A stretch of DNA of 63,636 nt, from positions 29,875-93,510 of the forward strand of contig CAZSRL010000001.1 of NCBI GenBank assembly GCA_964609615.1. Reading direction: 5' to 3'. Below are positions 2,762 through 60,081 of this stretch, in pieces. The notes beneath the pieces are model-generated. The model did not search any database, was not told where the DNA came from, and saw only the letters and a program-made list of their open reading frames with translations. The position numbers were made by a program, and so were the translations under genes. The stretch's first letter is position 1. The number at the start of each line of letters is the position of its first letter. The stretch is from an uncultured Muribaculaceae bacterium. GTDB lineage: Bacteria > Bacillota_I > Bacilli_A > RF39 > UBA660.

Positions 2762-3014
2762 AAACTAATACTATCTTGGAAGCGTTTCTTATATTTGTTT
2801 CTTTTATAGTTTTATTTAACTCATAAAGACTTCCGTCTTCTCTGTTATATAATCTATCATCTTCTTCTATTTGATAGTAGTCATTTGATAGTTCATTTAT
2901 TAATTTTTTTAAATAATCTGTCACCTCAGAAACAGTTTTGTTAATTGGTATAAAAAGTTCATATTTTTGATCTATCTTAGGAACAAATACTTCAATTAAT
3001 ATTTTATTATCCAT
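2760..3014 (-). CDS. esaB: EsaB/YukD ubiquitin-like T7SS component
   Basis: 84 aa, the right size and position for EsaB/YukD. Overlaps the essC stop by 8 nt. Sequence MDNKILIEVFVPKIDQKYELFIPINKTVSEV has YukD-like beta-grasp character. Confidence 0.7.
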   Translation of the reverse strand: MDNKILIEVFVPKIDQKYELFIPINKTVSEVTDYLKKLINELSNDYYQIEEDDRLYNREDGSLYELNKTIKETNIRNASKIVLV

Positions 3015-6000: not shown

Positions 6001-7572
6001 TAAATAATTTGATATTTGATTCAAATCATCTGAATTTGAACAAAAGAATCTTATTTTTTTCTCATCATCCCAACAATAAGGACTCATTTTTAAATAATCC
6101 CATTTGTTTTTGTTTTTTTCATTTGTTAAAACAACTATTTTTACATCTTCATAACTTTGAAAAGTCATTAATTTTAGTAAAAAACCTTTTATAAATTCAT
6201 TTGTAATATTTGGTTCTCCAAATATAGCACTTATATATTTGTCAGTAAGTTTTACAGTCACAGGAACATCATGAATTAATTTAACCTCATCTCCAAGATG
6301 TTGTACCATTTGTTTAAGATTATCCTCTTCTAACTCGAAATGCTTATCAGGATACTTTAAATCTATTTCTGGTTCTCTATTACCAATACCTATTCTAATT
6401 TCAAGAAAGTCATCATGTTCAACTTTTCTTTCCCATAAATTTCTTCCTTTTAATTCTATTATTTCTTTACATTTACCAATAGGTAAATTATTTTCAATAA
6501 TGATTTGTTTTTGTTTTGCTATTATACTTGTAATTTCTATTTTTTTAGAATCTATATATTTTGAATATCTTTCTTGCCTTAATTTTTCTTTTTTCTTTTC
6601 TTGTTTCTTTTGCCATTGTTTAGAAAGTACAGGCCAAAGAATCATAGTTAAAAGCATAGCAAAAGCAATAACTAAAGATGGCATAGCACTACTAAGTGTT
6701 TGTGTTCCATTTAGCACTCCATTAAGTGCTACTATACCCATAACCATAGAGGTCATTCCCATTGTTACCATAGGTCCTACTGTATATATAAATGGCATTT
6801 CATCTGGCTTACCTTTTTCAGGTGGAGCATCTATAACTACTTCTTCTTTTTCTAAAACCGTTCTAAATCTAGGTGCTCTAAAAAAATAGTCTTTTTTATC
6901 AAACACTTTAACTTCTTTATCATCATCACTTTTAACAATAGCTGTTGGATAGTTTAATTTTTCATTTAATACTAATGATAATGTTTTATCAACAACTACT
7001 TTATTTGATGGATTATTTACCATTATATAAGGCCCATTAACAATAATTCTAAGACCCATAATAAATATAACGTCTCCATGATTTATATCTTCATTTTCAA
7101 CTTTTTGATTATTTACATAAACTAAATTACTAGTTACAATACTCCATTTTTTTTCTTTATATTTATATATTAATTTAGCATGTTGAGGTTTAACATACTT
7201 ACATGTATAATTAATTAAATTAGAAGGACTATTACCTATAGTTATTTCTATGTCAGAATTAATCATATATTTTTTTATATTACTATTATATACTTCATCA
7301 CAATATAATAATTGATAATTTTCTGCATAGTTTTCTTTAATTGAATAAAATGTATTTTCACTTAAAATACATTCAGTTTTTTCAACTCCGTCTACAAATA
7401 ATTTGGTATCTAAATTACTAGATATTTCCCATTTTCCATTTGCTTCGTGAATGTTAACTAAATTAATTTTTTTATTAAGACTATTGCTATCCTCAACCCA
7501 ATAACTACCAATTGGATTTATAGGTAATGTTAATACTTTTAATTCATTTTGTTTTATTAATAATATCCTCAT
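3007..7572 (-). CDS. essC: T7SSb FtsK/SpoIIIE-family ATPase EssC/YukB
   Basis: About 1520 aa with N-terminal FHA-like repeats and two TM helices (TVGPMVTMGMTSMVMGIVAL..., PSLVIAFAMLLTMILWPVL). Walker A motifs are GMTGSGKSEF and GSVGSGKENL. The third P-loop domain is degenerate. The track start at 7581 is a GTG inside the SD GGGTGA, so I use ATG 7572 (MRILLIKQNE). Confidence 0.93.
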   Translation of the reverse strand: MRILLIKQNELKVLTLPINPIGSYWVEDSNSLNKKINLVNIHEANGKWEISSNLDTKLFVDGVEKTECILSENTFYSIKENYAENYQLLYCDEVYNSNIKKYMINSDIEITIGNSPSNLINYTCKYVKPQHAKLIYKYKEKKWSIVTSNLVYVNNQKVENEDINHGDVIFIMGLRIIVNGPYIMVNNPSNKVVVDKTLSLVLNEKLNYPTAIVKSDDDKEVKVFDKKDYFFRAPRFRTVLEKEEVVIDAPPEKGKPDEMPFIYTVGPMVTMGMTSMVMGIVALNGVLNGTQTLSSAMPSLVIAFAMLLTMILWPVLSKQWQKKQEKKKEKLRQERYSKYIDSKKIEITSIIAKQKQIIIENNLPIGKCKEIIELKGRNLWERKVEHDDFLEIRIGIGNREPEIDLKYPDKHFELEEDNLKQMVQHLGDEVKLIHDVPVTVKLTDKYISAIFGEPNITNEFIKGFLLKLMTFQSYEDVKIVVLTNEKNKNKWDYLKMSPYCWDDEKKIRFFCSNSDDLNQISNYLKSVLMERKYPDAENMDESEADYHYSKPYYVVITDDFNSIRNTDIIKEILKQKINYGFSLIINAERIIGLPNECSAFINIGQKSSGMFENDLILNKQKAFLQDLDLNLDMNKITEILANIPIELEQEKYKLPQMLSFLEMYDAGSVEQLNAEKRWETNNPIASLKVPVGKDENGELFNLDLHEKFHGPHGLIAGMTGSGKSEFIITFILSMAVNYHPNEVAFALIDYKGGGLAGAFENKETKIRLPHLVGTITNLDIVEMNRSLASIQSELKRRQRIFNKARETSGESTIDIYKYQKLFRDGKVKEAVPHLFIISDEFAELKTQQPEFMDQLISTARIGRSLGVHLILATQKPSGVVDDQIWSNSKFRVCLKVQDKSDSVDMIKCPDAAAIKEVGRFYLQVGYNEFFALGQSAWCGAPYIKQDKLRKKIDTDIDVIDNVGFITKSIETSNKKELIASYGEQLTNILKYLSDIAQKNNINLPKLWLDSIPDTIYVNNLVTKYSYKQMPHVINPIIGEYDDPNNQQQHLLTMPLSTEGNAIIYGSVGSGKENLLNTIIYSCVMCYTVDEVNIYIVDCGAETLVQFNKIPHVGDVILSNDVEKISNLLKFIQKKIEERKKLFTNYGGSFQNYCNNSGEVLPTILIIINYYEVFSELYQDYEDTIIKLTREGFKYGIIFILTTNGVSNVRYKLTQNFKQTFMLQLNDESDYSTVLGNVRGKYPSKLKGRGLIKKGEIYEFQSAYMCNIEQTNEFVKQLESYLNQKYTQTAPEIKILPDSIGIEEIKEELTNLRNVPIGIEKQTLDISTYNFKRFFANIIATSNVDNISSFIQILYKEMKLLKANLIVIDASSLLDDEQYENYYSIDFDKIVTNLKQIIESNTETICIIVGINDFINNLTEENKTLFSSLFENVKDIQNFNFVIADGVENIKTMAFEPWMKKTLSNNNAIWLGDGLGDQFTISTTTRPAKLNEENSEDFGYVIKSGKPVIIKVIGAKGNDLDG

Positions 7573-7616
7573 TTGCTTCACCCAAATTATTCTCTATTCT
7601 AAAAATAATTATACAT

Positions 7617-28649: not shown

Positions 28650-28991
28650 CTAAAATATTTTTGTTGCCCATTTCCTAAACAACACCCCATTTTGAGATTT
28701 CACTCTATAACCAACGCTTATTATCATATCTAAATCGTAGTGTTTTGTACGATATTCCTTGCCATCTGAAGCAGTTATTCGGAAAAACTGGTTAACTGTA
28801 TTATCAAGTTCTTTTTCTTTGAAAATGTTATTAATATGTTCATTTATCGTCCTTATATCTTTATCAAATAACAACGCCATTTGTTTTTGGGTAAGCCATA
28901 CAGTTTCTTTATTTAAATTAACGTCAAGTTTTAGTCCTCCTTCTTCGAATATTACAATATTATTTTTGTTTTTTTCATGTTTTTCCTCCTT
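28650..28991 (-). pseudogene. RhuM-family (virulence/Fic-associated) gene remnant, 5'-frameshifted and 3'-truncated
   Basis: The frame reads ...NNIVIFEEGGLKLDVNLNKETVWLTQKQMALLFDKDIRTINEHINNIFKEKEL...DMIISVGYRVKSQNGVLFRKWAT, the conserved RhuM N-terminal region. The only upstream ATG (28978) is one base out of frame across an A-run. The ORF stops after ~110 codons, whereas I recall RhuM proteins being about 300 aa or longer. Confidence 0.6.
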
Positions 28992-29009: not shown

Positions 29010-29041
29010 AAAAAACATATGAGATTTATCATATGTTTTTT
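29010..29041. terminator. Bidirectional terminator downstream of the nucleotidyltransferase gene
   Basis: aaaaaacatatga gattta tcatatgtttttt is a 13-bp stem including A/T runs. Confidence 0.5.
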
Positions 29042-29089: not shown

Positions 29090-29989
29090 TTAAAAAAGTT
29101 TGTTTGGATATTCTTTGTTATCATGAAGTTTTTTTATTTCTTTTTTTACTTTATCAACATCTTCTTTATATGTTATTCCAATCCATTTAGAATCAGTCAT
29201 TATAGATTTTACTTTAATAGCATCTTCATTAATCATTTTATTTACTACTTTAGGAAGTGAATATTCAATATTATCTAATTCATTTATGTTGTTTTTAAAG
29301 AATTTTATTATATCTTTTTCTAAATATTCAAATAAATATGGTGTAAATCCAAACATGTTCATAGATGTTATTGTATTTGGATCTTCTATAATATATTTAT
29401 CTTTATTTTCTAAACATGAATAGTAATTTTCTCTTTCTTTTTTAACAAATATTCCAAGTATTTTTTCAATATTATCTTGATCATTAACAATACATTTTGC
29501 TCTATTAAGTTTTTCTGGTGAATTAATTGTGTTTTTTAATTTATAATCTATTGAAACAAATTCTTTTTCTTCTAAATTATTAAGTTCATCACTTAATAAT
29601 TTAAATGCATTTTTTCCATAAAAATCATCTGCGTTAATTAGTCCAAAATTTTCCTTTATCACGTCTTTTGCACAATATACTGCGTGTGCTATACCAAATG
29701 GTTTAATTCTAGTTTTAGGAATTTCTACAAATGATTCTATATTATCATTTGTTTGAAATATATAATGTATTTCACATATTTTTTCTATTTCTTTTCCAAC
29801 CACTTCTTTTATTACTTCATAGTTTTCTTTTCTTACTATAATTACTATTTTATTAAATCCATTTTTAATAGCATCAAATATAGAGTAATGTAATATTACT
29901 TCTTCATTTGGACCTACTGGTTGTATTTGTTTTAATCCACCAAAACGATTTCCCATGCCTGCGGCAGCTATTAAAAGTGTTTTTTTCAT
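29090..29989 (-). CDS. Sugar-phosphate nucleotidyltransferase family protein (substrate unknown)
   Basis: N-terminal LIAAAGMGNRFGGLKQ (the GxGxR-K nucleotide-binding signature of the NTP_transferase fold), 299 aa. Start overlaps the HAD stop (TAATG). Confidence 0.7.
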   Translation of the reverse strand: MKKTLLIAAAGMGNRFGGLKQIQPVGPNEEVILHYSIFDAIKNGFNKIVIIVRKENYEVIKEVVGKEIEKICEIHYIFQTNDNIESFVEIPKTRIKPFGIAHAVYCAKDVIKENFGLINADDFYGKNAFKLLSDELNNLEEKEFVSIDYKLKNTINSPEKLNRAKCIVNDQDNIEKILGIFVKKERENYYSCLENKDKYIIEDPNTITSMNMFGFTPYLFEYLEKDIIKFFKNNINELDNIEYSLPKVVNKMINEDAIKVKSIMTDSKWIGITYKEDVDKVKKEIKKLHDNKEYPNKLF

Positions 29990-30561
29990 TATTTAAATAA
30001 TCTTCTTTCTACTTCTTTTCCTTTTACAATATATGCATCTTTAGCAAGTTTTAACATTGGAACATCAGACAAACTATCACTATAAGCTTCTTGAACTTCT
30101 ACATTTTTATATTCTTTTCTAAATCTTTTTACTTTTTCTTCATCATGACAATTTTCTCCAATGATTTTACCTGTTTTTACATTATATTTAGTACATATTA
30201 CATTTTTTATTTGCATTCTTTTACATAAAGGAACTAAATAAAAATCAAGTGAAGCACTAATAATAATGTCATCATCTCTTTTTCTATCCACATAGAATGT
30301 TTTCATCCTATCTTTATAAATCATTGCAAAATCTTCTATAAGTTCATCTAAGTCTTCAATTTTATTTACAAAACTAAATACATATTGTTTTAATTCCTTA
30401 AAACTAATATTTCTAACTGCATAACGTATGCAATACCAAATTGATTTAAACAAATGAAAATAAACTAATCCAGGATATTTATCCATACAATATCTTATAA
30501 AATCATATCCAGAATCTCCATTGTATATTGCGTTATCAAAATCATATATATTACGTTTCAT
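29989..30561 (-). CDS. HAD-superfamily phosphatase (HAD-IB-like)
   Basis: Motif I DFDNAIY near the N-terminus, a cap-like insert, and late SDSLSDVPMLKLA (motif IV-like). 190 aa. Confidence 0.65.
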   Translation of the reverse strand: MKRNIYDFDNAIYNGDSGYDFIRYCMDKYPGLVYFHLFKSIWYCIRYAVRNISFKELKQYVFSFVNKIEDLDELIEDFAMIYKDRMKTFYVDRKRDDDIIISASLDFYLVPLCKRMQIKNVICTKYNVKTGKIIGENCHDEEKVKRFRKEYKNVEVQEAYSDSLSDVPMLKLAKDAYIVKGKEVERRLFK

Positions 30562-30688
30562 TAAAACCTCTCCTTCTACATTTATTTTAACATATTAAAT
30601 ACATAAGAAAAACAAAATATGTCTTAACTTTGCATTTTTATGCTTAATCTGACAATTATTTTGTTTTGTTAGTATTTTAAAAAATTAC

Positions 30689-32278
30689 TTAATCAGTTTC
30701 TATTTCATATCTCTGTATATTATTTATTAAATAATCATATTTACCTAAATTAAAATTAATTATTGTTTTAAATCTTTTTTTAGTAAAAATTTTGCCTCTT
30801 GTAATGATTATTATTTTATCATAATACTCATTTATTCTTTTATCTTCAATAACATTTTTATTTATTTTTAATGATTTAGCATATCCTTTGGGAATAATTC
30901 TTTCATTATGACCAATTCTTTCTAATTCAACTAGCTTTGTAGGCATTCTAGATAACAATGGATCTGTTAAAGCATAGTCATCAATTATTATAATATCTTT
31001 TGGTGAATAATAACCTAAAACTCCAACTGTATATGCTATCCAAACATTATTATATTTTTTTTCTTTAAATGGATCCATGTTATCGTAAATATTATTATCA
31101 TTTGCTCCTCTTATTGGGCTTGTGTAATTATAATAAAAAGCTTGTTCATCTAATACTTTATTAATTGATTTATCAAACATTGATAATCCGAAAGTATTTC
31201 TATTAATACTATATGTGTGTGTTATTGAAAAGACAGATATTATTATTAATATCAATAAAATATATTTTTTTCTATTGCTTGATGATTTTTTTATTTTAAT
31301 TTGTGATAATACTATTAGTGATACTAAGAAAGCAGGAGTTAAAAATCTTGCTAACATAAAATCTCCACCAACATATATAATATAAATTATTGATAATAGT
31401 ATTCCTAATGATAAATATTTTATTTTATTTTCAATTTGATTTGTAAATAATAATATAATTGCTATTATAGGAATAATAGCTGTAATAAAGTCTAATATTA
31501 GATTTGCATGTATATATTTTAATCCATTTATTATTAATTCAATTTGAGGAAAATCTAAATTTGTTTTAGCATACATTGTATTTGGAAAAAAGAATCCATA
31601 ATATATAAATGAAAATATTTCCCAAGCAATAAATGGAATTATACTTAACAAACCAATTGATATACTTTTAATAATGCTTGTTTGTTTGTCTTTTTTTACA
31701 AAAAATGCATAAATTAAAGATGGCAATACTAAAAGAATTGAATCCATTCTATTTAGTAATAATAAAGATGCAATAAATCCTAATAATAATAGTCTTTTTT
31801 TATCATATGTTTTATATTTAAAGAATATATAATAAAAAATACTTAATAACAAAAATGTTAATGATGTTTCTAAACCAGAAGTTGTAAATGCTAAAAATGA
31901 TTTACTCATTAATATAAGTATTATTATAATTATAGATATTTTATGGTTTTTTGATATTTTAAACAATAACAAATATACAGCAATTATACTCGCAATCAAA
32001 TTAAATATAATAGATGTAAAAATAAGTTCTTTTGTAAATATACATAACCCACTTAGTATAAGTACTTGTAATGGATTTGTAAATGCCTGTACTCTTTCAA
32101 ATGTATTCCAAGTAAGCCCATCACCATTAATAAAGTTTTTTACAGTTCTAAATGATATAAAAGCGTCATCGCCTAACCACATACCAATAATTATTGTTAT
32201 TATAAATGTTATAAATAATACAACTAATATTTTATAATCTAATTTTTTTTGTTTAAATTTATTTACTGCTTTTTTCAT
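30689..32278 (-). CDS. GT-C-fold polytopic membrane glycosyltransferase (polyprenyl-phosphate-sugar dependent; arabinofuranosyl/ribofuranosyl-transferase candidate)
   Basis: 529 aa with at least 10 predicted TM helices and a ~180-aa C-terminal soluble domain. The first loop after TM1 carries GDDAFISFRTVKNFINGDGLTWN, the acidic DD motif position typical of GT-C enzymes. Confidence 0.55.
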   Translation of the reverse strand: MKKAVNKFKQKKLDYKILVVLFITFIITIIIGMWLGDDAFISFRTVKNFINGDGLTWNTFERVQAFTNPLQVLILSGLCIFTKELIFTSIIFNLIASIIAVYLLLFKISKNHKISIIIIILILMSKSFLAFTTSGLETSLTFLLLSIFYYIFFKYKTYDKKRLLLLGFIASLLLLNRMDSILLVLPSLIYAFFVKKDKQTSIIKSISIGLLSIIPFIAWEIFSFIYYGFFFPNTMYAKTNLDFPQIELIINGLKYIHANLILDFITAIIPIIAIILLFTNQIENKIKYLSLGILLSIIYIIYVGGDFMLARFLTPAFLVSLIVLSQIKIKKSSSNRKKYILLILIIISVFSITHTYSINRNTFGLSMFDKSINKVLDEQAFYYNYTSPIRGANDNNIYDNMDPFKEKKYNNVWIAYTVGVLGYYSPKDIIIIDDYALTDPLLSRMPTKLVELERIGHNERIIPKGYAKSLKINKNVIEDKRINEYYDKIIIITRGKIFTKKRFKTIINFNLGKYDYLINNIQRYEIETD

Positions 32279-32295
32279 TATTTACCTATCTTTCA

Positions 32296-33486
32296 TTACT
32301 TTGTTATTTGCCCAACTATATTTAGCATTGTATCAGTTTTTCCATATTTTATAAGATGAAAATTTCTCTCTGGAAAAAACACAATAGTAATCATTATTAG
32401 TAAAACAATACTCATTATTATACTTAACAATACTTTTTGTTTAGTAATCTTTTTATTATCTTTATTAGCAAAGAATAAATACATCATTAATAATAAAAAT
32501 GTATTAATAAGAAACATATACCATCTACCATAATCACATAGTATGAAAAATAGTATGGATGGAGATACTGTTGAAAGCATCATTAATATAAAAATAAGTT
32601 TATTTTTTGATTTTTTATATAATTTTATAAAACATGTTTTTAAACCAATAATAATAATTAATATATAACCAACTATAGCTATAATATAGTCTAAAATATT
32701 TTGTTCTGCTGTATATGTTTTTATTAATTCCCTGTTTCCTTGTGAGGTTGAATAATAATAATCATTTATTACAGCAGGATCGATATCTAAAGAAGATTTA
32801 ATATTTAAATAATTTATAAATTCATTGCTACTATTAAAGTTAGGTGTAAAGATTATAAATCTAACAACAATAAACATAGAAAGCAATACAATAATATTAA
32901 TAATAAATGTTTTTAAATAATTTTTTTCTTTTGTATTACTATATTCATATAACAATACCATACAAATCATTGGAGAAAGCCAAATTAAATAACTTTCATG
33001 TATTAACATACCAATTATACTAAATATTGGAATTAAAAATAATTTCTTTTTATTAATACATAATAAAGAAAGTATTCCCAATATATAAATGTAAATATCT
33101 AATCTACCTAATTCAAGATAACTATACATAAAAGTAAATGATCCGGTATTTATAATAAATAATAATGCTATTAAAATAAAATAATTGTTATATTTTTTTA
33201 CTAACATGTTTAATACATAACTAATAAAGAACATTAAACTAAATATTATAAATATATTGGCAATTACTACTTCTGTTTTTGTAGTTAAACCCAGTAATAA
33301 AAATATTTCCCCTATTAATCCTCTAGATATTAAACCATTATCATAATTAATAGCGTAATATGTTAATGTATAAGAATTCATTGAATCGAACGGACTTAGT
33401 TTATAAAAGAAAAAAAATACTAAAATAGCCATGAAAAAAAAGAAAAAAAAGTTCTTTTGTTTTAAATTGTTAATAAAGTTATTCAT
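32296..33486 (-). CDS. Polytopic membrane protein (second GT-C-like/polymerase-like candidate), family not recognised
   Basis: About 396 aa and almost entirely TM helices. The track GTG 33495 is inside the SD AAGGTGA, so I use ATG 33486. Three T8 tracts lie in the first 30 codons. Confidence 0.5.
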   Translation of the reverse strand: MNNFINNLKQKNFFFFFFMAILVFFFFYKLSPFDSMNSYTLTYYAINYDNGLISRGLIGEIFLLLGLTTKTEVVIANIFIIFSLMFFISYVLNMLVKKYNNYFILIALLFIINTGSFTFMYSYLELGRLDIYIYILGILSLLCINKKKLFLIPIFSIIGMLIHESYLIWLSPMICMVLLYEYSNTKEKNYLKTFIINIIVLLSMFIVVRFIIFTPNFNSSNEFINYLNIKSSLDIDPAVINDYYYSTSQGNRELIKTYTAEQNILDYIIAIVGYILIIIIGLKTCFIKLYKKSKNKLIFILMMLSTVSPSILFFILCDYGRWYMFLINTFLLLMMYLFFANKDNKKITKQKVLLSIIMSIVLLIMITIVFFPERNFHLIKYGKTDTMLNIVGQITK

Positions 33487-33536
33487 ATACTTCACCTTTA
33501 AATATTATATCAAAGAAAAAGTAAAATAAAAAGTAG

Positions 33537-34583
33537 TTAAAAGAACTTTTTAACTACTCCTAAGATTCCTTGTTTCCATGGCACTCTATGGCTTACACCA
33601 CTTGTATTTTTAAAGTTTTTTAGATTTTTTAAATACCATTTATAATTTCTTAATAAAGCATCCTTATTTGAATATTTAGGATTATAACATAATTTTTTTC
33701 TTGCTTTTTCTATTGATACAAAACTATCTTTACTTGCTGTTTCATATACCCATTTATATAACGGAGATAAGTGTAAGAATTCCAATACTCTTAATCCAAA
33801 TATAACTGGAACTGCGGGAAATCCTTTTATCTTTTTTCCGTATCCAGCATAATCAAGTACTGCCTGATAATCTTCTTTCATTGTTGTGTAATCACTTGCT
33901 CCAATATTAAATACATCATTTACTTTAGATTTTGGAAGAGTCATTGACAATAAAATTGCATCACATAAATCATCTACGTCTAGAAGTTGATATCTGTTGT
34001 TTCCACTACCAATCATTGGAAATCCTCTTCCATCATTAGCCCAATCATAAAACATTGCAAAAACTCCAAGTCTTTCAGGACCAATAAATGATTTTGGTCT
34101 AATAATAGTTGTTGTTAATCCTTTATTTCTAAACTTAATACATTCTTTTTCAGCTTCTATTTTAGCAATTCCATAAGGACCAACACCATCTAATTTATCA
34201 GTTTCTAAAAGTGGATGATGATCAGGAATACCATATACCGCTGTTGAAGATATTTGAATAAATCTTTTTATTTTGTTTTTATAAGCACTAGTTACTACAT
34301 TTTTACTTCCAGCAATATCAGTAGTAAATATTTCTTTTTTTGTATATAAAGGTAATGCCGCAGCACAATGAATACAATAAGTACATCCTTTCATACATTT
34401 ATTAACTTGTTTCATGTTTCTAATATCGCCTACAACGTGTTCAATTTTATCCATGCAATCTTTATAATCAAATGCAACTAAATCAAGAGAAATAACATCA
34501 TATCCTTCTTTTAACAATTTTCTAATTAGGTTAATACCTAAAAATCCGCTTCCTCCAGTTACAAACACTTTTTCTTTCTTCAT
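33537..34583 (-). CDS. NAD(P)-dependent extended SDR epimerase/dehydratase/reductase
   Basis: VFVTGGSGFLGINLIRKL Rossmann motif and YGIAK catalytic YxxxK. 348 aa. Start overlaps the GtrA stop (TAATG). Confidence 0.85.
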   Translation of the reverse strand: MKKEKVFVTGGSGFLGINLIRKLLKEGYDVISLDLVAFDYKDCMDKIEHVVGDIRNMKQVNKCMKGCTYCIHCAAALPLYTKKEIFTTDIAGSKNVVTSAYKNKIKRFIQISSTAVYGIPDHHPLLETDKLDGVGPYGIAKIEAEKECIKFRNKGLTTTIIRPKSFIGPERLGVFAMFYDWANDGRGFPMIGSGNNRYQLLDVDDLCDAILLSMTLPKSKVNDVFNIGASDYTTMKEDYQAVLDYAGYGKKIKGFPAVPVIFGLRVLEFLHLSPLYKWVYETASKDSFVSIEKARKKLCYNPKYSNKDALLRNYKWYLKNLKNFKNTSGVSHRVPWKQGILGVVKKFF

Positions 34584-35035
34584 TACTTCTCCACCTCAGT
34601 ATTAATTATAGTTTTTTTATTTTTATTTGTAAAGGCATAAAATTTTACAATTAAATATGTTATTGGTAAACCAAACATAGCCGCTAATAAATATACTATA
34701 TAATGATTCCAATTTAAAATATTAATAAATACGCATACAAAACTAAATAATATTATAAAATTTGGAATATATGATATTACAAATTTTATAAATTTTTTAA
34801 AACTTAATTTATTTTTAAAAATCAATCTAGTATTTAAATAATATGCCACAAATAAACTACTACCATATCCTATAACATATGAAATAATAGGATTTACATT
34901 AAATGATATTATTGAAGAAATAATAAAATTAGTTAATGTTCCCATTCCTCCACAAAATATGAATAATATAAAATCCTTATTAGTAAATAATTTTATTTTT
35001 TCTTTAAAACTTAAATCTTTTATTGAATCCTTCAA
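34583..35035 (-). CDS. GtrA-family small membrane protein (lipid-linked sugar translocation/chaperone)
   Basis: Four TM helices and GtrA-like FIFCGGMGTLTNFIIS. I start at TTG 35035, 7 nt after GAGGTGA, which overlaps the UbiA stop. The track start 35071 is a TTG inside ubiA. Confidence 0.75.
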   Translation of the reverse strand: MKDSIKDLSFKEKIKLFTNKDFILFIFCGGMGTLTNFIISSIISFNVNPIISYVIGYGSSLFVAYYLNTRLIFKNKLSFKKFIKFVISYIPNFIILFSFVCVFINILNWNHYIVYLLAAMFGLPITYLIVKFYAFTNKNKKTIINTEVEK

Positions 35036-35040
35036 TTTAT

Positions 35041-35877
35041 TCACCTCATTATAATTACAAAAAATATACAAAACAAAAATGTTAATCCTATCAATACTTT
35101 ATCTCTAAAAAAAACTTCTGTTGGATCACCATCTAAATCAGATTCTACATCTAAACAATATTTCATTAATATCACAAATAGAAATGGAATAGAAAAAAAT
35201 AAATATTTTATATTTTGTTCAACTACCCATAGAGAATAAAATACAATTGATAAAGTTACAGAACTATACATAAATTTATCTAAAAAATCTTTGTTATAGT
35301 TTTGTAATACAAGTCTTGATTTTGATTTATACTGTAATAATTCATTTCTTCTTTTGCCAAAAGCAAAGAAAAATGACAAACTCATAGTTGTTAAAAACAA
35401 CCAATTAGATACAGAAACATCAATAATAATTGAACCATAGTATAATCTAATAATATAAAAAACAACAAGTAACAATAAATCTAATAATATTATATTTTTT
35501 CCAATAAAACTATAAAAAACATTTAATACTAGATAAAAAAACAATAATAACCAAGAGTATAAACATAATCCAGCAGAAAAATAATTAAATAATATACTTA
35601 ATAAAAAACAAACAATCATTATTATTGTAGCTTTTAATACAGAAATATCTCCTTTTGCAATAGGCCTATTTTTTTTTGTATCATGTTTTTTATCATATGA
35701 AACATCCTTAATATCATTAATAATATATACAACAGAAGAAATAAAACAAAAGGCAATAAAACCAAATATAACATTTGATAATTCTGAAGAAAATAATTCT
35801 TTAGCAAATAACAAAGGTAAAAAAACAATAAAGTTTTTTATATATTGTTTTACTCTTAATAATTTTATATATTTCAT
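35041..35877 (-). CDS. UbiA-superfamily prenyl-phosphate phosphoribosyltransferase, decaprenyl-phosphate 5-phosphoribosyltransferase (Rv3806c/DPPR synthase)-like
   Basis: RVKQYIKNFIVFLPLLFA, YIINDIKDVSYDKKHDTKKNRPIAKGDIS (NDxxDxxxDxxHxxKxxRPIAxG), FAFGKRRNEL and C-terminal LDVESDLDGDPTEVFFRDKVL all parallel the M. tuberculosis UbiA/Rv3806c sequence as I recall it. They do not resemble the MenA/UbiA quinone enzymes. Confidence 0.75.
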   Translation of the reverse strand: MKYIKLLRVKQYIKNFIVFLPLLFAKELFSSELSNVIFGFIAFCFISSVVYIINDIKDVSYDKKHDTKKNRPIAKGDISVLKATIIMIVCFLLSILFNYFSAGLCLYSWLLLFFYLVLNVFYSFIGKNIILLDLLLLVVFYIIRLYYGSIIIDVSVSNWLFLTTMSLSFFFAFGKRRNELLQYKSKSRLVLQNYNKDFLDKFMYSSVTLSIVFYSLWVVEQNIKYLFFSIPFLFVILMKYCLDVESDLDGDPTEVFFRDKVLIGLTFLFCIFFVIIMR

Positions 35878-35933
35878 ACCTCACACATCCTACTTATATA
35901 TTCTACCATATTTAATTAATAAATAAAAATAAA

Positions 35934-35970
35934 AGTCAAAAAAATCTTACTTTTGTTTTAGTAAGATTTT
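35934..35970 (-). terminator. Rho-independent terminator directly after the out-of-frame PASTA tail ORF
   Basis: aaaatcttac (35941-35950) and gtaagatttt (35961-35970), with a T-run on the minus strand (plus-strand A-run 35938-35944). Confidence 0.55.
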
Positions 35971-36238
35971 ATTCTCCAAGAATATTTAAAATTGAATTAT
36001 CATTAATCACTGACTCTTTATTACTATCATTTACTTTTTTATTGTTTTGTTTGATGATCTCATTTTTATTATTATGTTCTTCTTTGCTATTTTCTTTTAT
36101 TATTTTTTCTCTCTTAGCAACGTATACAATTATTTCTTCATTACTATTTATATTTGAACCAGGATTTATAGAATAATTTATTATATTATTATTTGGAATA
36201 TCATTATTTATTTTATATTTAATTTTATATTTTATATT
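35969..36238 (-). pseudogene. Out-of-frame 3' continuation of the PASTA-repeat gene (final PASTA-like unit plus Asn/Lys-rich tail)
   Basis: The frame one base off from 36225..37301 reads NIKYKIKYKINNDIPNNNIINYSINPGSNINSNEEIIVYVAKREKIIKEN...ILGE*. The PASTA-like ending (INPGSNI...IIVYVAK) is followed at once by a terminator. The frames switch within an ATAAAAT-ATAAAAT repeat at ~36225-36240. Confidence 0.5.
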
Positions 36239-37301
36239 TTATCTTGTATCTATATGCAAAATCTTTAAACTCATTTAACTTAGAAAAATTAGGTAGTTTT
36301 AATTTACCTAATGAAAAATATAAAACAATGTTATCTATTTGTGATATTTTATTATTAGATTTTATATTAGCAGATATATATTTTCCTTTTTTTATTTTAT
36401 TATTATATACGTAATTAAATTTAACATTTAAGTTGTTTTTTATTATCCAGTTATTTATTTCTTTGGTGTTCAATTTATTAAAATTAGGAACTATTATTTC
36501 TTTTCCTTTTGATATATATAAAACAATCTTTTTTTCTTTTTCTATTTCTTTAGACTTAATAATATTATTTTTTTCAATTATATTGCTAAATTCATATATT
36601 TCTTCGTATTTATAATTATTAGATAAAAGATATATAATGGCTTCATATTTATTTTTATTTACTAAACTAAAATCATGTATCTTTTTATATTCTTTTTTCA
36701 TACAAAAACTAAATTTTATTTTTTCATTTCTATTAACAGTTCCTATAGTTGATTGATCAATTAAAATATTATTATTACATATATTTGTTTTATTTAAAAC
36801 TATTTCTACATTATTTAAATAATTTGTTTTTATAAATTTACTTACATAATTATTATTTTTACCTATTAAATATGGGATAATTATTTTTTTATTCATATTA
36901 GGACCTTTACTAACAACTACATTTATATGTTTATTATCTTTTATATTATAAACAATTATTTTATTTTCCTTTACTTTATCAGAATATTCATAATTAACAT
37001 TAACTTTTATATTATTACTTTTAGCATACATATATAATTCATTATAATTTTTATTTAAATATTCTGTATCATTACTTTTATATAATATTTTTGAACTATT
37101 AATTATACAAAAACTAAAGAATATTATAATTAATATTTTATTTATAATATTTATCATTTTATTATTATATTTAAAAAATAAAATAATAAAAACTAATAAA
37201 AACGCTAATATAATATATAAAAAATTTAAATTTAATAATGAATAGATTAAATTAATTATACTTAAAACTAATAATATATTTTTAAAATTATTATTATTCA
37301 T
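36225..37301 (-). CDS. Membrane-anchored PASTA-repeat protein without kinase or PBP domain (apparently frameshifted near the 3' end)
   Basis: Two N-terminal TM helices, then repeats ending in VVVSKGPN / LYISKGKEIIVPNF / LYFSLGKLKLPNFS (the PASTA xVSxG-x-VPN linker pattern). ATG 37301 follows the SD GGTGAAG. Confidence 0.55.
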   Translation of the reverse strand: MNNNNFKNILLVLSIINLIYSLLNLNFLYIILAFLLVFIILFFKYNNKMINIINKILIIIFFSFCIINSSKILYKSNDTEYLNKNYNELYMYAKSNNIKVNVNYEYSDKVKENKIIVYNIKDNKHINVVVSKGPNMNKKIIIPYLIGKNNNYVSKFIKTNYLNNVEIVLNKTNICNNNILIDQSTIGTVNRNEKIKFSFCMKKEYKKIHDFSLVNKNKYEAIIYLLSNNYKYEEIYEFSNIIEKNNIIKSKEIEKEKKIVLYISKGKEIIVPNFNKLNTKEINNWIIKNNLNVKFNYVYNNKIKKGKYISANIKSNNKISQIDNIVLYFSLGKLKLPNFSKLNEFKDFAYRYKIKYKI

Positions 37302-37362
37302 AATATACTTCACCATTATTAGTATTAACTATTATAAAAAAGATAAACGTTAAGTTTATCTT

Positions 37363-39600
37363 TTATACTTTATACCAAAAGTTCATATCTACTCTTCCAC
37401 TAATTCCAGAAACAGTCCCTGAAGAGGTATATTGCCATCCATAATAGTTTTTATATCCGCAAGGACCAGCAGATGAATAATGATAAGAACACTTTGTACT
37501 ATAATGTGCTACCCACATAGGATATTGTTTTATTAATGAACTATTTAAATATCCACTTGAACTAAAGAAAGCGCTTGCATTACCATAAACACCAGTTTTA
37601 TATCCGGCAGCTTTCATATTATTTATAAAAGCAGGTATAACTTTTTCATAATTTGTTCTTCCTATACTTGATACTTCAGCATCATACCATACACCATAAT
37701 ATAAATAAGGGTTCCCAACTGCAGAAAGTTTTAATCTTAAAGCTACAGCTTCTTTAATGGCATCAGATGCATTATTAACGTAGCCGTAATAATAAACACC
37801 TCTAGGGATACCTAATCTTTTTAATTCTCTAATATTTCTTTCAAATTGCAAATCAGTTGCATTTGCCCCTGTTGAACTACCTGTATAACCTATTCTTACA
37901 ATAGCACCATTTACTTTGCCGGATTTTTTTACAGCAGCCCAATCAATATTATTTTGCCACACAGAAACATCAATTACATTTGAACCAGTGCTAACTAATA
38001 TTCCATCTTCTGAGAAAAGTTTACTTTTTCCATACACAGTTCTCCATCCAGTTAATAAGTTTCCATTCCCATCTTGATAATATGTGTTATCTCCTTCTGT
38101 ATAATATCCGTGAGTTGTATTTCCTTGTGAATTAAAATTATATACTACTCCACTTATAGTAGTTTTTACGCTCATATAAGAAGCACCATTAGAGCCTAAG
38201 TAATACATTTTAGAATTAGCATATATCCACATGTTTTTATATATTTTACCTTTGTTTATGTAATAATATCTTCCTCCGGAATATATAAATCCATTTTGCA
38301 TTGCCCCATTTGAATTAAAAAAGTAATATTTCTTTTTTATACTCACTATACCTTTTACTGCATGTCCGTATCTATTAAAATAATATGTTTTTTTGTTTAT
38401 TGTTTTCCACTTGCTTTTAGTCATATTACCTTTTTTACTAATGTACCAAGTATATCCGTTGTGATTTATTAGACCTGTTTGTTTATGATAATAATTGTTT
38501 AAATAATAATATTTTTTATTTAATTTTATTATTCCTCTAGACGCATGTCCTTTTTTGTTAAAATAATATTTATATTTTCCAATCTTTTTCCATTTGCTTT
38601 TGGTCATATTTCCTTTTGAACTTATATACCATTTATACCCATTGTATGTTATTAATCCTGTTTGTTTATGATAATAATTATTTAAATAATAATATTTTTT
38701 ATTTAACTTTATTATTCCTCTTACAGCATGCCCATACTTATTGAAGTAATAATAGTTATTATTTGTTTTAATCCATTTACTTTTAGATATTTTTCCTCCA
38801 CTAATATAATAATAATATCCTGAGTCCCATACAAGTCCGTTTTTTTGTATTGCAGTTGTTTTATCAAAATAATATGTTGAGTTTCCTAAGGTAAACCATC
38901 CTTTTACAGCATGTGCGTTATTATCAAAGTAATATGTATTTCCATTTATCGTTTTAAAACTATTTTTAACAGCACCATTAGTTGTCATATAATAATAATA
39001 TCCATTTATATTAACTAATCCTAGAGGTTGTACTCCTGTTGTATTAAAATAATGTAAGTTTCCATTTATTGTTTTAAAACCTAATTGCATTTCTCCAGTA
39101 ATTAAATCAAAATAATATGTTTGATTATCTATTTTTTTTAATCCAGTCAACATTTCTCCAAATCTATTAAAAGCATAATATTTATCATTAATTCTATATA
39201 ATCCACTACATACTATTTTTTCATTATCTTTTTCATATAAATAATATGTTGTATTTTTAATAACTTCATTATTATCTTTATCTATATTTTTTTCTTCTAA
39301 TGTATTAAATCCATATTCTTTACTATAATCATTAAGTAATTCATATTTTAATTGATATGGTTTTATTTTATTTATTTGATCTTCTTGCTCATAAATTTTA
39401 ATTATTTCTTGTTCATTTTCATCTTTATAAATTTTTTCATAATATTCTTCTAAAAAGTTATTGTAATCATATTCTATGTGAGTATAATCTTTTATTTGTT
39501 CAATTTCTATTTCTTCATCTGCTTTTACATTAAAAAAAGATAACAAAAAAATTGCTAGTGTAATAATAATTAAAAATACTGATTTTTTTACTACATTCAT
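37363..39600 (-). CDS. Secreted GH25 muramidase (autolysin) with N-terminal cell-wall-binding (CW_binding_1 / choline- or glucan-binding type) repeats
   Basis: Signal peptide ending FFNVKA|DEE. About 15 YYF-x-x-x-G repeats (NQTYYFDLITGEMQLGF, GNTYYFDNNAHAVKGWF ...). C-terminal VIDVSVWQNNIDWAAVKKSGKVNGAIVRIGY is the GH25 signature. Confidence 0.85.
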   Translation of the reverse strand: MNVVKKSVFLIIITLAIFLLSFFNVKADEEIEIEQIKDYTHIEYDYNNFLEEYYEKIYKDENEQEIIKIYEQEDQINKIKPYQLKYELLNDYSKEYGFNTLEEKNIDKDNNEVIKNTTYYLYEKDNEKIVCSGLYRINDKYYAFNRFGEMLTGLKKIDNQTYYFDLITGEMQLGFKTINGNLHYFNTTGVQPLGLVNINGYYYYMTTNGAVKNSFKTINGNTYYFDNNAHAVKGWFTLGNSTYYFDKTTAIQKNGLVWDSGYYYYISGGKISKSKWIKTNNNYYYFNKYGHAVRGIIKLNKKYYYLNNYYHKQTGLITYNGYKWYISSKGNMTKSKWKKIGKYKYYFNKKGHASRGIIKLNKKYYYLNNYYHKQTGLINHNGYTWYISKKGNMTKSKWKTINKKTYYFNRYGHAVKGIVSIKKKYYFFNSNGAMQNGFIYSGGRYYYINKGKIYKNMWIYANSKMYYLGSNGASYMSVKTTISGVVYNFNSQGNTTHGYYTEGDNTYYQDGNGNLLTGWRTVYGKSKLFSEDGILVSTGSNVIDVSVWQNNIDWAAVKKSGKVNGAIVRIGYTGSSTGANATDLQFERNIRELKRLGIPRGVYYYGYVNNASDAIKEAVALRLKLSAVGNPYLYYGVWYDAEVSSIGRTNYEKVIPAFINNMKAAGYKTGVYGNASAFFSSSGYLNSSLIKQYPMWVAHYSTKCSYHYSSAGPCGYKNYYGWQYTSSGTVSGISGRVDMNFWYKV
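38356..38721. repeat. Near-identical 183-bp (61-codon) tandem duplication inside the autolysin repeat region
   Basis: Units 38721-38539 and 38538-38356 both encode RGIIKLNKKYYYLNNYYHKQTGLI..NGY.WYIS.KGNMTKSKWK. Long stretches are identical at DNA level (cctgtttgtttatgataataatt.tttaaataataatatttttt). Confidence 0.85.
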
Positions 39601-57005: not shown

Positions 57006-57068
57006 AATTCACCTCTTTGTCTTATTATACAACAAAAAGAGTTATTTATAAACTCTTTTTGTTTTAAA
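57003..57068. repeat. 66-bp perfect direct repeat, copy A (tagO start codon + SD + hairpin + stop of the DUF2142-like gene)
   Basis: cataattcacctctttgtcttattatacaacaaaaagagttatttataaactctttttgttttaaa is identical base for base to 61831-61896. Confidence 0.95.
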
Positions 57069-58674
57069 TCATAAATTGAACTAACATATACATCCATACA
57101 GTTAGATTGAACAATAAAACAGTAAAAATTATTTTTTTATCATCAATTTTTATTCTTTTTAAACCAGTTGGTTTTATTATAAACGGGATAAGCATGACAA
57201 GAGGAATAAAATATCTACCTTGTATTCCTTCAATAGTTTTATATCCTATTCCAAAATACTGAGCAGTGCATTGAGTATATAATGCCGTTAATATTAAGCC
57301 AAATACTGTAGCTCCTACAAAAATTGTTAATATTTTTTCTTTTAAAATAATGTTATTAATTATCTTTTCTTTTAATAAGGTAACCGATAATAAAATAATA
57401 TAAAGATATGAAATTACATATGGAATAATTAATTGAGAATGATACATTCTAGAACCAACAAACAATTCTTCAACATAAACCATTGCATAATTTACACATG
57501 TTCTAAAACAAATTATTAAATATTCCAAAACATTTTCAATTATAAAAGTTTTTTGTAAATGAGATTTTGGATATGAAATATCAAATATTTTTCCTGTTGT
57601 TCTTAACCATAGATAACAAAAAAATCCGCTTATTATTATTGTTATAATAATAAATATACACGTTTTTTTTCTTTGACTATTATCATTTTTGTTTATTAAT
57701 AAAAGGAGCAGGAAGACAAATGGCAAATATACTATTTTACATAATGCTATTGTAATTGATAACAGAAACAAGATTATTTTTTCATCATTTTTTATCTTCT
57801 TATTATTATATTTAATATTAAATATAATTGAAAGAAATAATAATAATATAACATTGATGAAAGCATCTGCTGACAAAGTTGTAGCACACTGTATTAAATT
57901 TGGAGACATTAATATAACAAAATAAAACATTTTATATTTTGGCAAAATTTTCAACGCATAATATCCTAAAACAATATAAGCCATTAAGTTAAACAATCTG
58001 CCTATCATACCAATTAAAAAAGGAGATAAAGCTAAAAACTTTGCAATAATAAAACCTATAGTATGAGGCAAATATGACATAGGAAAATATAAAGCAGTAT
58101 TTGAATAAAAAATACTATATGGTACAATTTGATCTTTTATTTGAGTAAACTCTCCATATTTTTTTTTATATCGTTTGTTTAATTTTACCTTATACATATT
58201 TTTGATATTTTTATATTTTATTTTAGTATTATCTGCTCCAGCTTTTAAAAAAGTTGTTTCCAATGATTTTGGTAAAAATCCTCCAACAGAATTAGAAACT
58301 GGTGTTGTTAATTTTCCTTCACTAATTTCATATATTCTATAATAGTGATTATGTTCATCACTACCGGTAAATAGAGGAGATAAAAAGATAAATACTACAC
58401 CAATAATTGTGCAAGAGATTACAAAAAATTTAGGAAAATCAGCAATTTTTTTATCATTGTACTTCATTATTACTAAAAAAACTATTAAACTTAACACTAA
58501 AACTATAATGCAAAAAAATAAATAATATTTATAACCATTTATATCATTTATCTGAAGTTTTTTTAATAATTTATAGAGATTTAAAGCAAATATAAAAAAC
58601 ATACATAACAAACCAGTTATGTAATAAATATTTGAATTAATAAGTTGTTTTATATTTTTTAATATTTTTAACAT
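57064..58674 (-). CDS. DUF2142-like polytopic membrane protein (GT-C-type extracytoplasmic glycosyltransferase candidate)
   Basis: After TM helices 1-3, FTGSDEHNHYYRIYEIS matches the DUF2142 (P)DEXXH loop. About 13 TM helices. It lies next to a GtrA + GtrB-like pair. ATG 58674 lies 6 nt after AAGGA. The track start 58695 lacks an SD. Confidence 0.6.
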   Translation of the reverse strand: MLKILKNIKQLINSNIYYITGLLCMFFIFALNLYKLLKKLQINDINGYKYYLFFCIIVLVLSLIVFLVIMKYNDKKIADFPKFFVISCTIIGVVFIFLSPLFTGSDEHNHYYRIYEISEGKLTTPVSNSVGGFLPKSLETTFLKAGADNTKIKYKNIKNMYKVKLNKRYKKKYGEFTQIKDQIVPYSIFYSNTALYFPMSYLPHTIGFIIAKFLALSPFLIGMIGRLFNLMAYIVLGYYALKILPKYKMFYFVILMSPNLIQCATTLSADAFINVILLLFLSIIFNIKYNNKKIKNDEKIILFLLSITIALCKIVYLPFVFLLLLLINKNDNSQRKKTCIFIIITIIISGFFCYLWLRTTGKIFDISYPKSHLQKTFIIENVLEYLIICFRTCVNYAMVYVEELFVGSRMYHSQLIIPYVISYLYIILLSVTLLKEKIINNIILKEKILTIFVGATVFGLILTALYTQCTAQYFGIGYKTIEGIQGRYFIPLVMLIPFIIKPTGLKRIKIDDKKIIFTVLLFNLTVWMYMLVQFMI

Positions 58675-58684
58675 ATACATTCCT

Positions 58685-59101
58685 TCACTTTTCATTAAAT
58701 ATTAAAATTCTTCTCATAATATAATTCCAAAATAAAATTAATAAAGAAACCACTATTTTTACAAACATATAATTAAACAATAAAATAAATTCTCCCAAGT
58801 ACATGCCTAATTCAGTTAAAATTAATCCGGAAATTGCAATAATTGCGGTAGCTATTACTGATTTTGTATCTCTTCCTTTTTTCTTTTGCTTTTCAGATGT
58901 AAAAACAAATAATAATGAGGCTATATAATTAAAAGCGAAAGCAACTATAAATGCAATTGTAACAGCTATTAAACTTATTAACTCAGTATCATTCCCTGAA
59001 AAAATAACTTCTCTAATAAAAACCAATACTGAAAAATCAATAATAAACGCTATGCCGCCCACTATACTATATCTAAAAAACTCTAAAAAATTTTTTTTCA
59101 T
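58685..59101 (-). CDS. GtrA-family small membrane protein
   Basis: FFRYSIVGGIAFIIDFSVLVF is a GtrA-like start. Four TM helices. TAATG overlap with the upstream GT2 gene. Confidence 0.8.
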   Translation of the reverse strand: MKKNFLEFFRYSIVGGIAFIIDFSVLVFIREVIFSGNDTELISLIAVTIAFIVAFAFNYIASLLFVFTSEKQKKKGRDTKSVIATAIIAISGLILTELGMYLGEFILLFNYMFVKIVVSLLILFWNYIMRRILIFNEK

Positions 59102-60045: not shown

Positions 60046-60081
60046 TATTTCCATCTCCTCTTTATATTGTATCATATTTAT

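Follow-up and report, generated by a model that had tools for sequence, protein, structure and literature searches.

What does a set of mycobacterial-looking sugar-donor genes do beside the teichoic-acid genes of a gut Firmicute? The question is raised by a compact seven-gene unit at positions 29090-35877 (minus strand) of a 63,636-nucleotide stretch of contig CAZSRL010000001.1, hereafter the window, which has ~24% G+C and carries every long gene on the minus strand. The original prediction, made from the letters of the sequence, read this unit as a pathway that builds a polyprenyl-phospho-pentofuranose donor without DprE1 and passes the sugar on through a glycosyltransferase of the C-type fold (GT-C). 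In outline that reading holds, from homology of the synthase, the HAD phosphatase and the GT-C enzyme and from gene linkage, and all seven open reading frames (ORFs) were recovered at their predicted positions. We regard the operon as very probably a Firmicute version of the "three-component" pentofuranose glycosylation system that depends on phosphoribosyl pyrophosphate (PRPP), acting on a cell-wall polymer. Its genes, in operon order, are as follows.

35041-35877, minus strand: predicted polyprenyl-phosphate 5-phosphoribosyltransferase (PPPRS) of the decaprenyl-phosphate 5-phosphoribosyltransferase (DPPR synthase, DPPRS) type, UbiA superfamily, 278 amino acids (aa); DPPRS profiles, Rv3806c match, substrate residues.
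34583-35071, minus strand: GtrA-family small membrane protein, 162 aa, presumed flippase of the lipid-linked pentose; PF04138 E=3.6e-12.
33537-34583, minus strand: extended short-chain dehydrogenase/reductase (SDR), 348 aa, presumed epimerase on polyprenyl-phosphate-ribofuranose; PF01370 E=2e-38, TGGSGFLG, Y137xxxK141.
32296-33495, minus strand: polytopic membrane protein, 399 aa (396 aa from ATG), family unannotated; may be a divergent GT-C-like enzyme and the second transferase of the operon.
30689-32278, minus strand: AftB-like GT-C glycosyltransferase, 529 aa; NCBIfam, PDB AftB, AlphaFold2 (AF2) and Foldseek.
29989-30561, minus strand: HAD-IB phosphatase, 190 aa, presumed polyprenyl-phosphate-ribose-5-phosphate 5'-phosphatase, the equivalent of the phosphoribose phosphatase (PRP) of known systems; PF12710 E=1.1e-19.
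29090-29989, minus strand: NTP_transferase-like protein, 299 aa; PF00483 E=3.5e-9, 1-nt overlap with the HAD gene.

In Citrobacter youngae O1/O2, ORF15 joins a HAD phosphatase to a UbiA-type synthase in one protein and makes polyprenyl-phosphate-ribofuranose (polyprenyl-P-Ribf) from PRPP, and its HAD domain was shown to be a phosphoribose phosphatase; a small transporter was inferred to flip the product, and the GT-C enzyme ORF12, which uses both Ribf and xylofuranose (Xylf) donors, puts the pentose on the O antigen (Kelly et al., PNAS 2024; PMC11127046). A lone cytoplasmic SDR, ORF13 (motifs TGxxGxxG and YxxxK), is a C3 epimerase that switches the sugar to Xylf, and arabinofuranose (Araf) systems carry DprE1/E2 homologues (PMC11127046). 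The same study calls the three-component pathway widespread, names Gram-positive candidates such as Bacillus sp. NP157, and includes one phage example in which the phosphatase is separate from the synthase (PMC11127046).

The 278-aa window protein groups with DPPR synthases and not with quinone, haem or lipid prenyltransferases, as had been proposed. Comparison with NCBIfam gave the DPPRS profiles NF008977 (E=1.7e-50) and NF008978 (E=1e-48), ahead by ~38 orders of magnitude of the best non-DPPRS UbiA-family model, the prenyltransferase PRK12884 (1.8e-12); the other competing models were UbiA (2.8e-12), CyoE (3.3e-8) and DGGGPS (2.6e-5). The top PDB match was Rv3806c (8j8j, E=2.1e-30), followed by the archaeal UbiA 4tq3 (E=4.4e-4). 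The four motifs that had prompted the comparison, KQYIKNF, NDIKDVSYDKKHDTKKNRPIAKGDIS, FAFGKRRNEL and DVESDLDGDPTEVFFRDKVL, are all present and align to the matching segments of Rv3806c (8j8j). In Rv3806c, pyrophosphate is contacted by R22, K87, R90 and K143, Mg by N73 and D77, and the 5'-phosphate by K28, Y70 and Y157, while Q135 reaches the ribose O3, K28 and K191 the lipid phosphate, and Y138 is also among the contacts (PMC10994848). Twelve of the 13 substrate-binding residues are conserved in the window protein, where these four groups correspond to R8/K68/R71/K127, N54/D58, K14/Y51/Y141 and, for Q135/Y138/K191, N119/Y122/K175. All are identical save for the asparagine in place of Q135; K208 of Rv3806c is replaced (L189), with R188 adjacent. 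The Mg/PRPP motif NDxxDxxxD is intact (N54, D55, D58 and D62), and these four residues, together with R8, K68, R71 and K127, are invariant in an alignment of 18 sequences, as are most window equivalents of the Rv3806c contacts among the 18 Firmicute homologues. Since the phosphoribose contacts that are kept here are not common to prenyltransferases (PMC10994848), PRPP is favored as the donor. The assignment of the 278-aa protein as a predicted DPPR-synthase-type polyprenyl-phosphate phosphoribosyltransferase is thus supported.

The HAD protein matches PF12710 over the whole profile, a family that also fits the N-terminal domains of the Rhizobium and Agrobacterium HAD-UbiA fusions, and its DFD, ISAS and SDSLSD motifs are intact. 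A profile built from 54 Firmicute HADs aligned over its full length to the PRP domains of HAD-UbiA fusions (hhalign E=2.4e-6, probability 89%), with the DxD, S/T and GDSxxD motifs in register; no PDB relative was found at E<=0.01. Genomic linkage is a stronger argument for the partnership than this profile match. Of the 83 Firmicute PPPRS loci in our comparison set for synthase neighborhoods, 55 have a HAD-IB homologue (30-53% identical) close to the synthase gene, for the most part immediately downstream, and in several relatives (related loci are numbered with the prefix L: L001, L005/L091, L092, L166, L173, L177 and L178) HAD is fused to GtrA. This linkage, with the GtrA fusion in close relatives, bears out the suggestion that the HAD protein is the predicted phosphatase partner; no match to the PAP2 family was seen among the 37 window proteins scanned with Pfam. 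The GtrA protein, first likened to Rv3789, is present as described (PF04138) and is 57-64% identical to the GtrA half of the HAD-GtrA fusions. HAD and GtrA form one gene in at least eight related loci (L178: 2234-3208). In the window this fusion has been split, GtrA staying after the synthase while the HAD gene now closes the two-part arrangement near the 3' end of the unit.

A GT-C fold had also been proposed for the 529-aa protein, and structure prediction with Foldseek places it specifically with AftB. The NCBIfam beta-(1->2)-arabinofuranosyltransferase model matched it at E=2e-15 and the AftB chains solved by cryo-electron microscopy (PDB 9dlf) at E=7.8e-14, with the GDDAFISFR motif aligned to the AftB DD loop; the E-values of this alignment and of that between the 278-aa protein and Rv3806c are far beyond chance. 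The AF2 model, built from a 47-sequence alignment, reached a predicted local distance difference test score (pLDDT) of 90.3 and a predicted template-modeling score (pTM) of 0.91. Against the PDB, Foldseek put AftB chain 9dlf_C first (E=5e-14, TM 0.68/0.59, 602 aligned columns, including the C-terminal extracytoplasmic domain), and other GT-C enzymes (STT3, ALG9, AftA, PglB, ArnT, Emb) gave E>=1e-3. In AftB, T91, R221 and R372 lie on the phosphate, E172 on the C5-OH and T274 at the C2 substituent (PMC12041299). The nucleophile of the AftB DD motif, D62, together with T91, E172, T274 and R372, corresponds to D38 (of D37-D38), T67, E137, T234 and R311 of the window protein, all invariant or nearly so across the 47 homologues. 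The conserved nucleophile and donor contacts make it plausible that the enzyme works by a retaining mechanism and forms a beta linkage.

The AftB-like family is broad, including members from Leptospira and Hydrogenedentes, and many carry the JGI label "arabinofuranosyltransferase." Four AftB-like neighborhoods (L171, L174, L175 and L176) show no donor-pathway genes and are uninformative. In Leptospira johnsonii (L172, 5968-11644) an AftB-like gene stands beside DprE1-like and DprE2-like genes, a pair recognized by Pfam and blastp, and a second polytopic protein of 509 aa; this gene content suggests that Leptospira may have a donor route of the decaprenyl-phosphate-arabinose (DPA) type.

The extended SDR departs from the mycobacterial template. 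It had been mapped onto DprE2, an equation that does not survive: blastp against a DprE2-like probe gave E=0.4, and it is a 348-aa extended SDR vs the ~245 aa of the DprE2-like proteins seen. The absence of DprE1 stands, as tblastn of the window with a DprE1-like probe was negative. With the two probes, both proteins of an Agrobacterium plasmid cluster, tblastn gave no match in the window, nor in any of the 83 Firmicute loci up to 10 kb from the synthase. SDR orthologues (66-86% identical) adjoin PPPRS genes in nine of the 83 loci and in L173, L177 and L178; on these counts the enzyme is an optional component, which matches the "auxiliary epimerase" role of ORF13. A Paenibacillus homologue (47-50% identical) has a PPPRS-type UbiA gene in its cluster. 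Among the systems listed by Kelly et al. (PMC11127046), that of Rhizobium CCGE531 has two SDRs: the window SDR matches the epimerase of an SMR/GMC-oxidoreductase operon (31% identity, E=7e-62) and, less well, the synthase-adjacent SDR (27%, E=4e-25). Linkage of the SDR to PPPRS genes thus extends over gut Bacilli, Clostridia, Paenibacillus and Rhizobium.

The SDR is also the best-conserved protein of the operon, 86% identical to its L178 orthologue vs 55-70% for the others, and it keeps 66-77% identity in loci where that of the synthase is down to 36-55%. This pattern points to strong constraint or to a recent modular spread. An exhaustive search returned 386 representative clusters of the subfamily at E<=1e-30, none of them characterized, and the names across it are generic "NAD-dependent epimerase/dehydratase" labels. 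The GT-C partners of SDR-positive loci vary (YfhO twice, PMT-like, the 399-aa family and AftB-like), and the SDR therefore fits a donor-side accessory enzyme. An exclusive tie between the SDR and the AftB-like GT-C was considered and ruled out by the several GT-C types in SDR-positive loci. A Paenibacillus cluster from a cultured host (L179, 4802-12053) differs in architecture, comprising an aldo-keto reductase, the PPPRS-type UbiA, a Wzx-type flippase, two family 2 glycosyltransferases (GT2), the SDR homologue and an Exo_endo_phos protein, with no HAD or GT-C in view.

Two operon products are less readily placed. The second large membrane protein, first given as 396 aa, is that length from the ATG of the database entry and 399 aa from a GTG start. 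Searches of Pfam and NCBIfam across 13 homologues gave it no family at thresholds as loose as E<=1, and a word-indexed search found few homologues. Its family hidden Markov model recurs in the PPPRS loci L148, L092, L113 (twice) and L005/L091, and a 62% identical orthologue lies in L178. The AF2 model (pTM 0.74) starts with a first transmembrane helix (TM1), short helices and TM2. Profile comparison by hhalign found no relation between this family and the AftB-like family (probability 2.6%), nor with the YfhO, PMT-like, Lactococcus, Rhizobium, Agrobacterium or Leptospira membrane partners. We consider it about an even call whether this protein is a second GT-C-like transferase. The 299-aa NTP_transferase-like protein, which lay within the original range and went undiscussed, matches an uncharacterized structural-genomics entry, the "conserved domain protein" PDB 3pnn, at E=1.7e-53. 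A 57% identical orthologue occupies the same operon position in L178, and the gene is absent from the 83 other Firmicute PPPRS loci.

Taken together, these parts would form a five-step route. The UbiA-type enzyme would move ribofuranose-5-phosphate from PRPP to a polyprenyl phosphate, presumably undecaprenyl phosphate, at the cytoplasmic face, and the HAD-IB phosphatase would strip the 5'-phosphate to leave polyprenyl-P-Ribf. The extended SDR, with bound NAD(P), may then epimerize one ring carbon, giving polyprenyl-P-Xylf (at C3, for which there is published precedent) or polyprenyl-P-Araf (at C2). GtrA would flip the lipid-linked sugar to the outer face, where the AftB-like GT-C enzyme, possibly along with the 399-aa protein, would transfer the pentofuranose to the wall polymer.

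Several observations weigh against this scheme or parts of it. The 278-aa protein falls below the NCBIfam equivalog cut-offs (172.1 vs 234 bits and 166 vs 207), and is therefore to be taken as a PPPRS-type relative rather than the mycobacterial orthologue. The 529-aa protein scores 55.9 bits vs an equivalog cut-off of 1050, and the second phosphate-binding arginine of AftB, R221, has L183 as its aligned counterpart, an invariant R177 lying six residues upstream; by sequence the protein is best described as an AftB-like relative, not AftB itself. For the 399-aa protein the best fold matches of the model were PglB (probability 0.87), STT3, ALG6 and ALG12, but E>=0.36 is not significant, and its first loop has no invariant acidic residue. 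The NTP_transferase-like gene has no place in the scheme. Finally, the acceptor is likely the teichoic-acid-type polymer of the adjacent locus, to which one line of evidence points, the gene neighborhood.

Comparison with known systems shows where this operon belongs. Like the C. youngae ORF12-15 system, it combines a PRPP-dependent UbiA-type synthase, a HAD phosphatase, a small flippase and a GT-C enzyme acting outside the membrane, and a single, optional cytoplasmic SDR epimerase that would set the identity of the pentose. The two differ in that the HAD protein here is separate, and in relatives fused to GtrA rather than to the synthase; the predicted flippase is of the GtrA type vs MATE, and the GT-C is AftB-like. 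With the GT-C candidate of the Rhizobium system as a stand-in for ORF12 (GT136), hhalign gave a probability below 1% against either window membrane protein. The window also adds the 399-aa membrane protein and the NTP_transferase-like gene, and its host is Gram-positive, with a teichoic-acid-type polymer the likely acceptor vs the O antigen.

With the mycobacterial DPA pathway the operon shares an Rv3806c-homologous synthase that keeps the substrate-binding residues, a GtrA-family protein like Rv3789, and a GT-C enzyme that has AftB as its sole close structural relative and keeps the DD nucleophile motif. Unlike that pathway, it has one extended SDR in place of the two-enzyme DprE1/DprE2 epimerase and HAD-IB in the place of the PAP2 phosphatase Rv3807c, which was not seen in the window; its carrier is presumably C55 vs C50, and its sugar is not known to be arabinose. 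In its mix of mycobacterial-type parts (GtrA and the AftB-like GT-C) and enterobacterial-type parts (the HAD phosphatase and a lone extended SDR), the window system draws on both.

Teichoic-acid glycosylation in Bacillus and Listeria uses a GT2 enzyme (CsbB/GtlA), GtcA and YfhO/GtlB. The window system resembles it in having a predicted lipid-phosphate-sugar donor, GtrA-family flipping and a GT-C enzyme that would act on teichoic acid outside the membrane, and differs in that the donor would come from PRPP through a UbiA-type enzyme and a phosphatase, not from UDP-hexose through GT2. A Firmicute cluster with the same core is found on the dairy Lactococcus cremoris plasmid pF27D (NZ_CP068515.2), whose synthase is 43% and whose stand-alone HAD-IB is 38% identical, with GtrA and a polytopic protein alongside; unlike the window, it lacks the SDR, the AftB-like GT-C and the 399-aa protein, and its genes are plasmid-borne in a Wzx/O-antigen-ligase-type polysaccharide cluster. 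NCBI already names the pF27D synthase "decaprenyl-phosphate phosphoribosyltransferase."

Such loci are common. Synthase genes related to that of the window occur in at least 511 species-representative genomes, and the best 80 of these are nearly all Firmicutes, among them the cultured Clostridium puniceum, Solibacillus and Desulfosporosinus; other cultured carriers are Paenibacillus silvae, P. xylanexedens and L. cremoris (pF27D). The donor system had been described as known from only a few cases outside the Corynebacteriales, making a Firmicute copy a new context. That claim fails because the scheme was described in 2024 (PMC11127046), Bacillus example included, and is common in Firmicutes, including the NCBI-named Lactococcus homologue. 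The operon is therefore a new, uncharacterized example of an already described type of system; no experimental Firmicute case was found in the literature searched. The whole operon is conserved in L178 and L005/L091, and YfhO-type GT-C genes flank the synthase in the related loci L001, L173 and L177. In Bacillus and Listeria, enzymes of the YfhO type add sugars to teichoic acids. Relative to L178, the window has its two large membrane genes in the opposite order. Three contigs labeled Muribaculaceae, a Bacteroidota family (L001, L021 and L100), carry a Firmicute-type Der and PPPRS, HAD-GtrA and YfhO genes close to the versions in Bacilli metagenome-assembled genomes (MAGs), and from these genes are probably mis-binned or mislabeled.

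Which pentose, then, does the operon deliver? The reading that survives best is that the sugar is xylofuranose and the SDR the functional equal of C. youngae ORF13, epimerizing polyprenyl-P-Ribf at C3; we hold it tentatively, at somewhat short of an even chance. ORF13 is the only lone SDR in such systems whose function has been shown by experiment, the window SDR has both of its motif types (TGxxGxxG and YxxxK) and is likewise an optional add-on to a core system, and DprE1/E2, which mark Araf systems (PMC11127046), are missing from the window. The split match to the two Rhizobium SDRs tells the other way: the better fit is to the epimerase of the SMR/GMC-oxidoreductase operon (31%) rather than to the synthase-adjacent SDR (27%), which makes the correspondence ambiguous.

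It is possible, if unlikely, that the sugar is instead D-arabinofuranose, the SDR alone performing the 2'-epimerization of DprE1/DprE2 and the AftB-like enzyme adding beta-linked Araf. The GT-C is specifically AftB-like and keeps the equivalents of E172 and T274, which contact the C5-OH and C2 substituent of an Araf donor analogue; Leptospira members of the same GT-C family adjoin DprE1-like and DprE2-like genes; the close gut-Firmicute relatives of the GT-C with informative neighborhoods co-occur with an SDR of the window type; and inversion at C2 is in principle within reach of a GalE-type SDR mechanism. However, polyprenyl-P-Araf is not known as the product of any lone SDR, GT-C enzymes of such systems can be promiscuous between pentose epimers (ORF12 takes Ribf and Xylf), several unrelated GT-C types occur in SDR-positive loci, and the search for DprE1 covered the window rather than the rest of the genome. 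The fuller proposal, in which the SDR would be a single-protein, NAD-dependent 2'-epimerase for polyprenyl-phospho-D-arabinofuranose, the AftB-like enzyme would add beta-linked D-Araf and the 399-aa protein would represent a new family of transferases for that donor, we judge doubtful.

Less probable again is an unmodified ribofuranose, with the SDR and the nucleotidyltransferase-like protein serving a separate nucleotide-sugar route for the wall-polymer locus. Most Firmicute PPPRS loci are without the SDR, and polyprenyl-P-Ribf must therefore be a sufficient donor there; the closest solved relatives of the SDR are nucleotide-sugar epimerases and dehydratases, and the operon does contain an NTP_transferase-like gene. 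Yet the SDR subfamily accompanies PPPRS genes in distant lineages without the NTP_transferase gene, its best NCBIfam matches include lipid-acting SDRs (HpnA, OleD and sterol enzymes), and it is the most conserved protein of the operon. A role for the UbiA homologue in ordinary quinone, haem or ether-lipid prenylation, in a cluster unrelated to pentose transfer, is barely credible and already contradicted: the Pfam match is to generic UbiA and some homologues bear the JGI label "4-hydroxybenzoate polyprenyltransferase," but the DPPRS models lead the prenyltransferase, UbiA, CyoE and DGGGPS models by >35 orders of magnitude, the PRPP- and phosphoribose-contacting residues are conserved, and the gene is linked consistently to HAD, GtrA and GT-C genes, not to quinone or haem genes.

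Within the PRPP-dependent system that we favor, the seven genes are closely packed, with junctions of -31, -1, +41, +17, +127 and -1 nt in operon order. The translational coupling that had been proposed is only partial, because three of the six junctions overlap (-31, -1 and -1 nt) and the others do not (+41, +17 and +127 nt). The likely operon boundaries are these.

35938-35969, minus strand: AT-rich hairpin and T-run 3' of the PASTA gene that precedes the operon, then TGGTAGAAT (35897-35910), which resembles an extended -10 element; likely start of the operon; sequence reading, RNAfold dG -8.5 kcal/mol.
29010-29041, minus strand: AT-rich hairpin and T-run, the likely operon terminator; RNAfold dG -11.2 kcal/mol.

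Both hairpins came from reading the sequence; a G+C-based scan detected no terminator, and promoter-like sites in the scan were rarer than in shuffles. Upstream, at 39.6-63.5 kb, the teichoic-acid super-locus named in the original prediction is indeed present, with four TagF-like glycerophosphotransferases, a TagGH-type ABC transporter, several GT2/GT1 enzymes, an LtaS-like sulfatase, a TagO/WecA-type GT4 and an LCP ligase. It also holds DUF2142 and DUF6020 polytopic proteins, between which lies a GT2 gene (59101-60075, within 57064-61833, minus strand); these genes are possibly further lipid-phosphate-sugar/GT-C-type decoration modules of the wall-polymer locus. Between this locus and the operon (36225-39600, minus strand), a PASTA-domain protein adjoins a GH25 muramidase with seven choline-binding repeats, a pair that suggests that the teichoic acid of the host may be choline-decorated. 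No kinase domain was found in the PASTA protein, an NCBIfam kinase model having matched its PASTA region only.

Downstream of the operon are a pyruvate:ferredoxin oxidoreductase gene, named through synteny with L178, whose orthologue bears POR/PFOR domains, and housekeeping genes. A 76-aa ORF in between (28650-28880, minus strand) looks like the N-terminal remnant of a RhuM/Fic-type gene, and L178, the closest relative, has an intact 305-aa Fic-domain gene there. Farther away (3007-7581, minus strand), a 1524-aa protein with FHA and FtsK/SpoIIIE ATPase domains has, as its sequence reads, an apparently EssC-like architecture, as in type VII secretion. The nearest relatives of the window Der GTPase (65-68% identity) come from uncultured gut "Bacilli bacterium" MAGs, some labeled Mollicutes/Tenericutes and one a 1.52-Mb chromosome. 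By this match the host is a gut Firmicute of an uncultured Bacilli lineage, and an origin in Clostridium was considered and rejected.

The operon offers an AftB-type GT-C enzyme outside the Actinobacteria with the residues of a retaining mechanism kept, and an unannotated membrane-protein family that recurs near the synthase, while the cultured carriers (Paenibacillus, Clostridium puniceum, Solibacillus, Desulfosporosinus and Lactococcus) make the pathway testable. The regiochemistry of the SDR decides between Xylf and Araf. Were the single-SDR D-Araf reading true, common gut Firmicutes would display mycobacterial-type arabinofuranose caps made by a different chemistry, and, speculatively, commensal glycans might cross-react with anti-lipoarabinomannan antibodies. 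If the prediction as a whole is true, decoration of wall polymers with pentofuranose from PRPP-derived lipid donors would be common in gut and other Firmicutes, given the number of genomes that carry the synthase.

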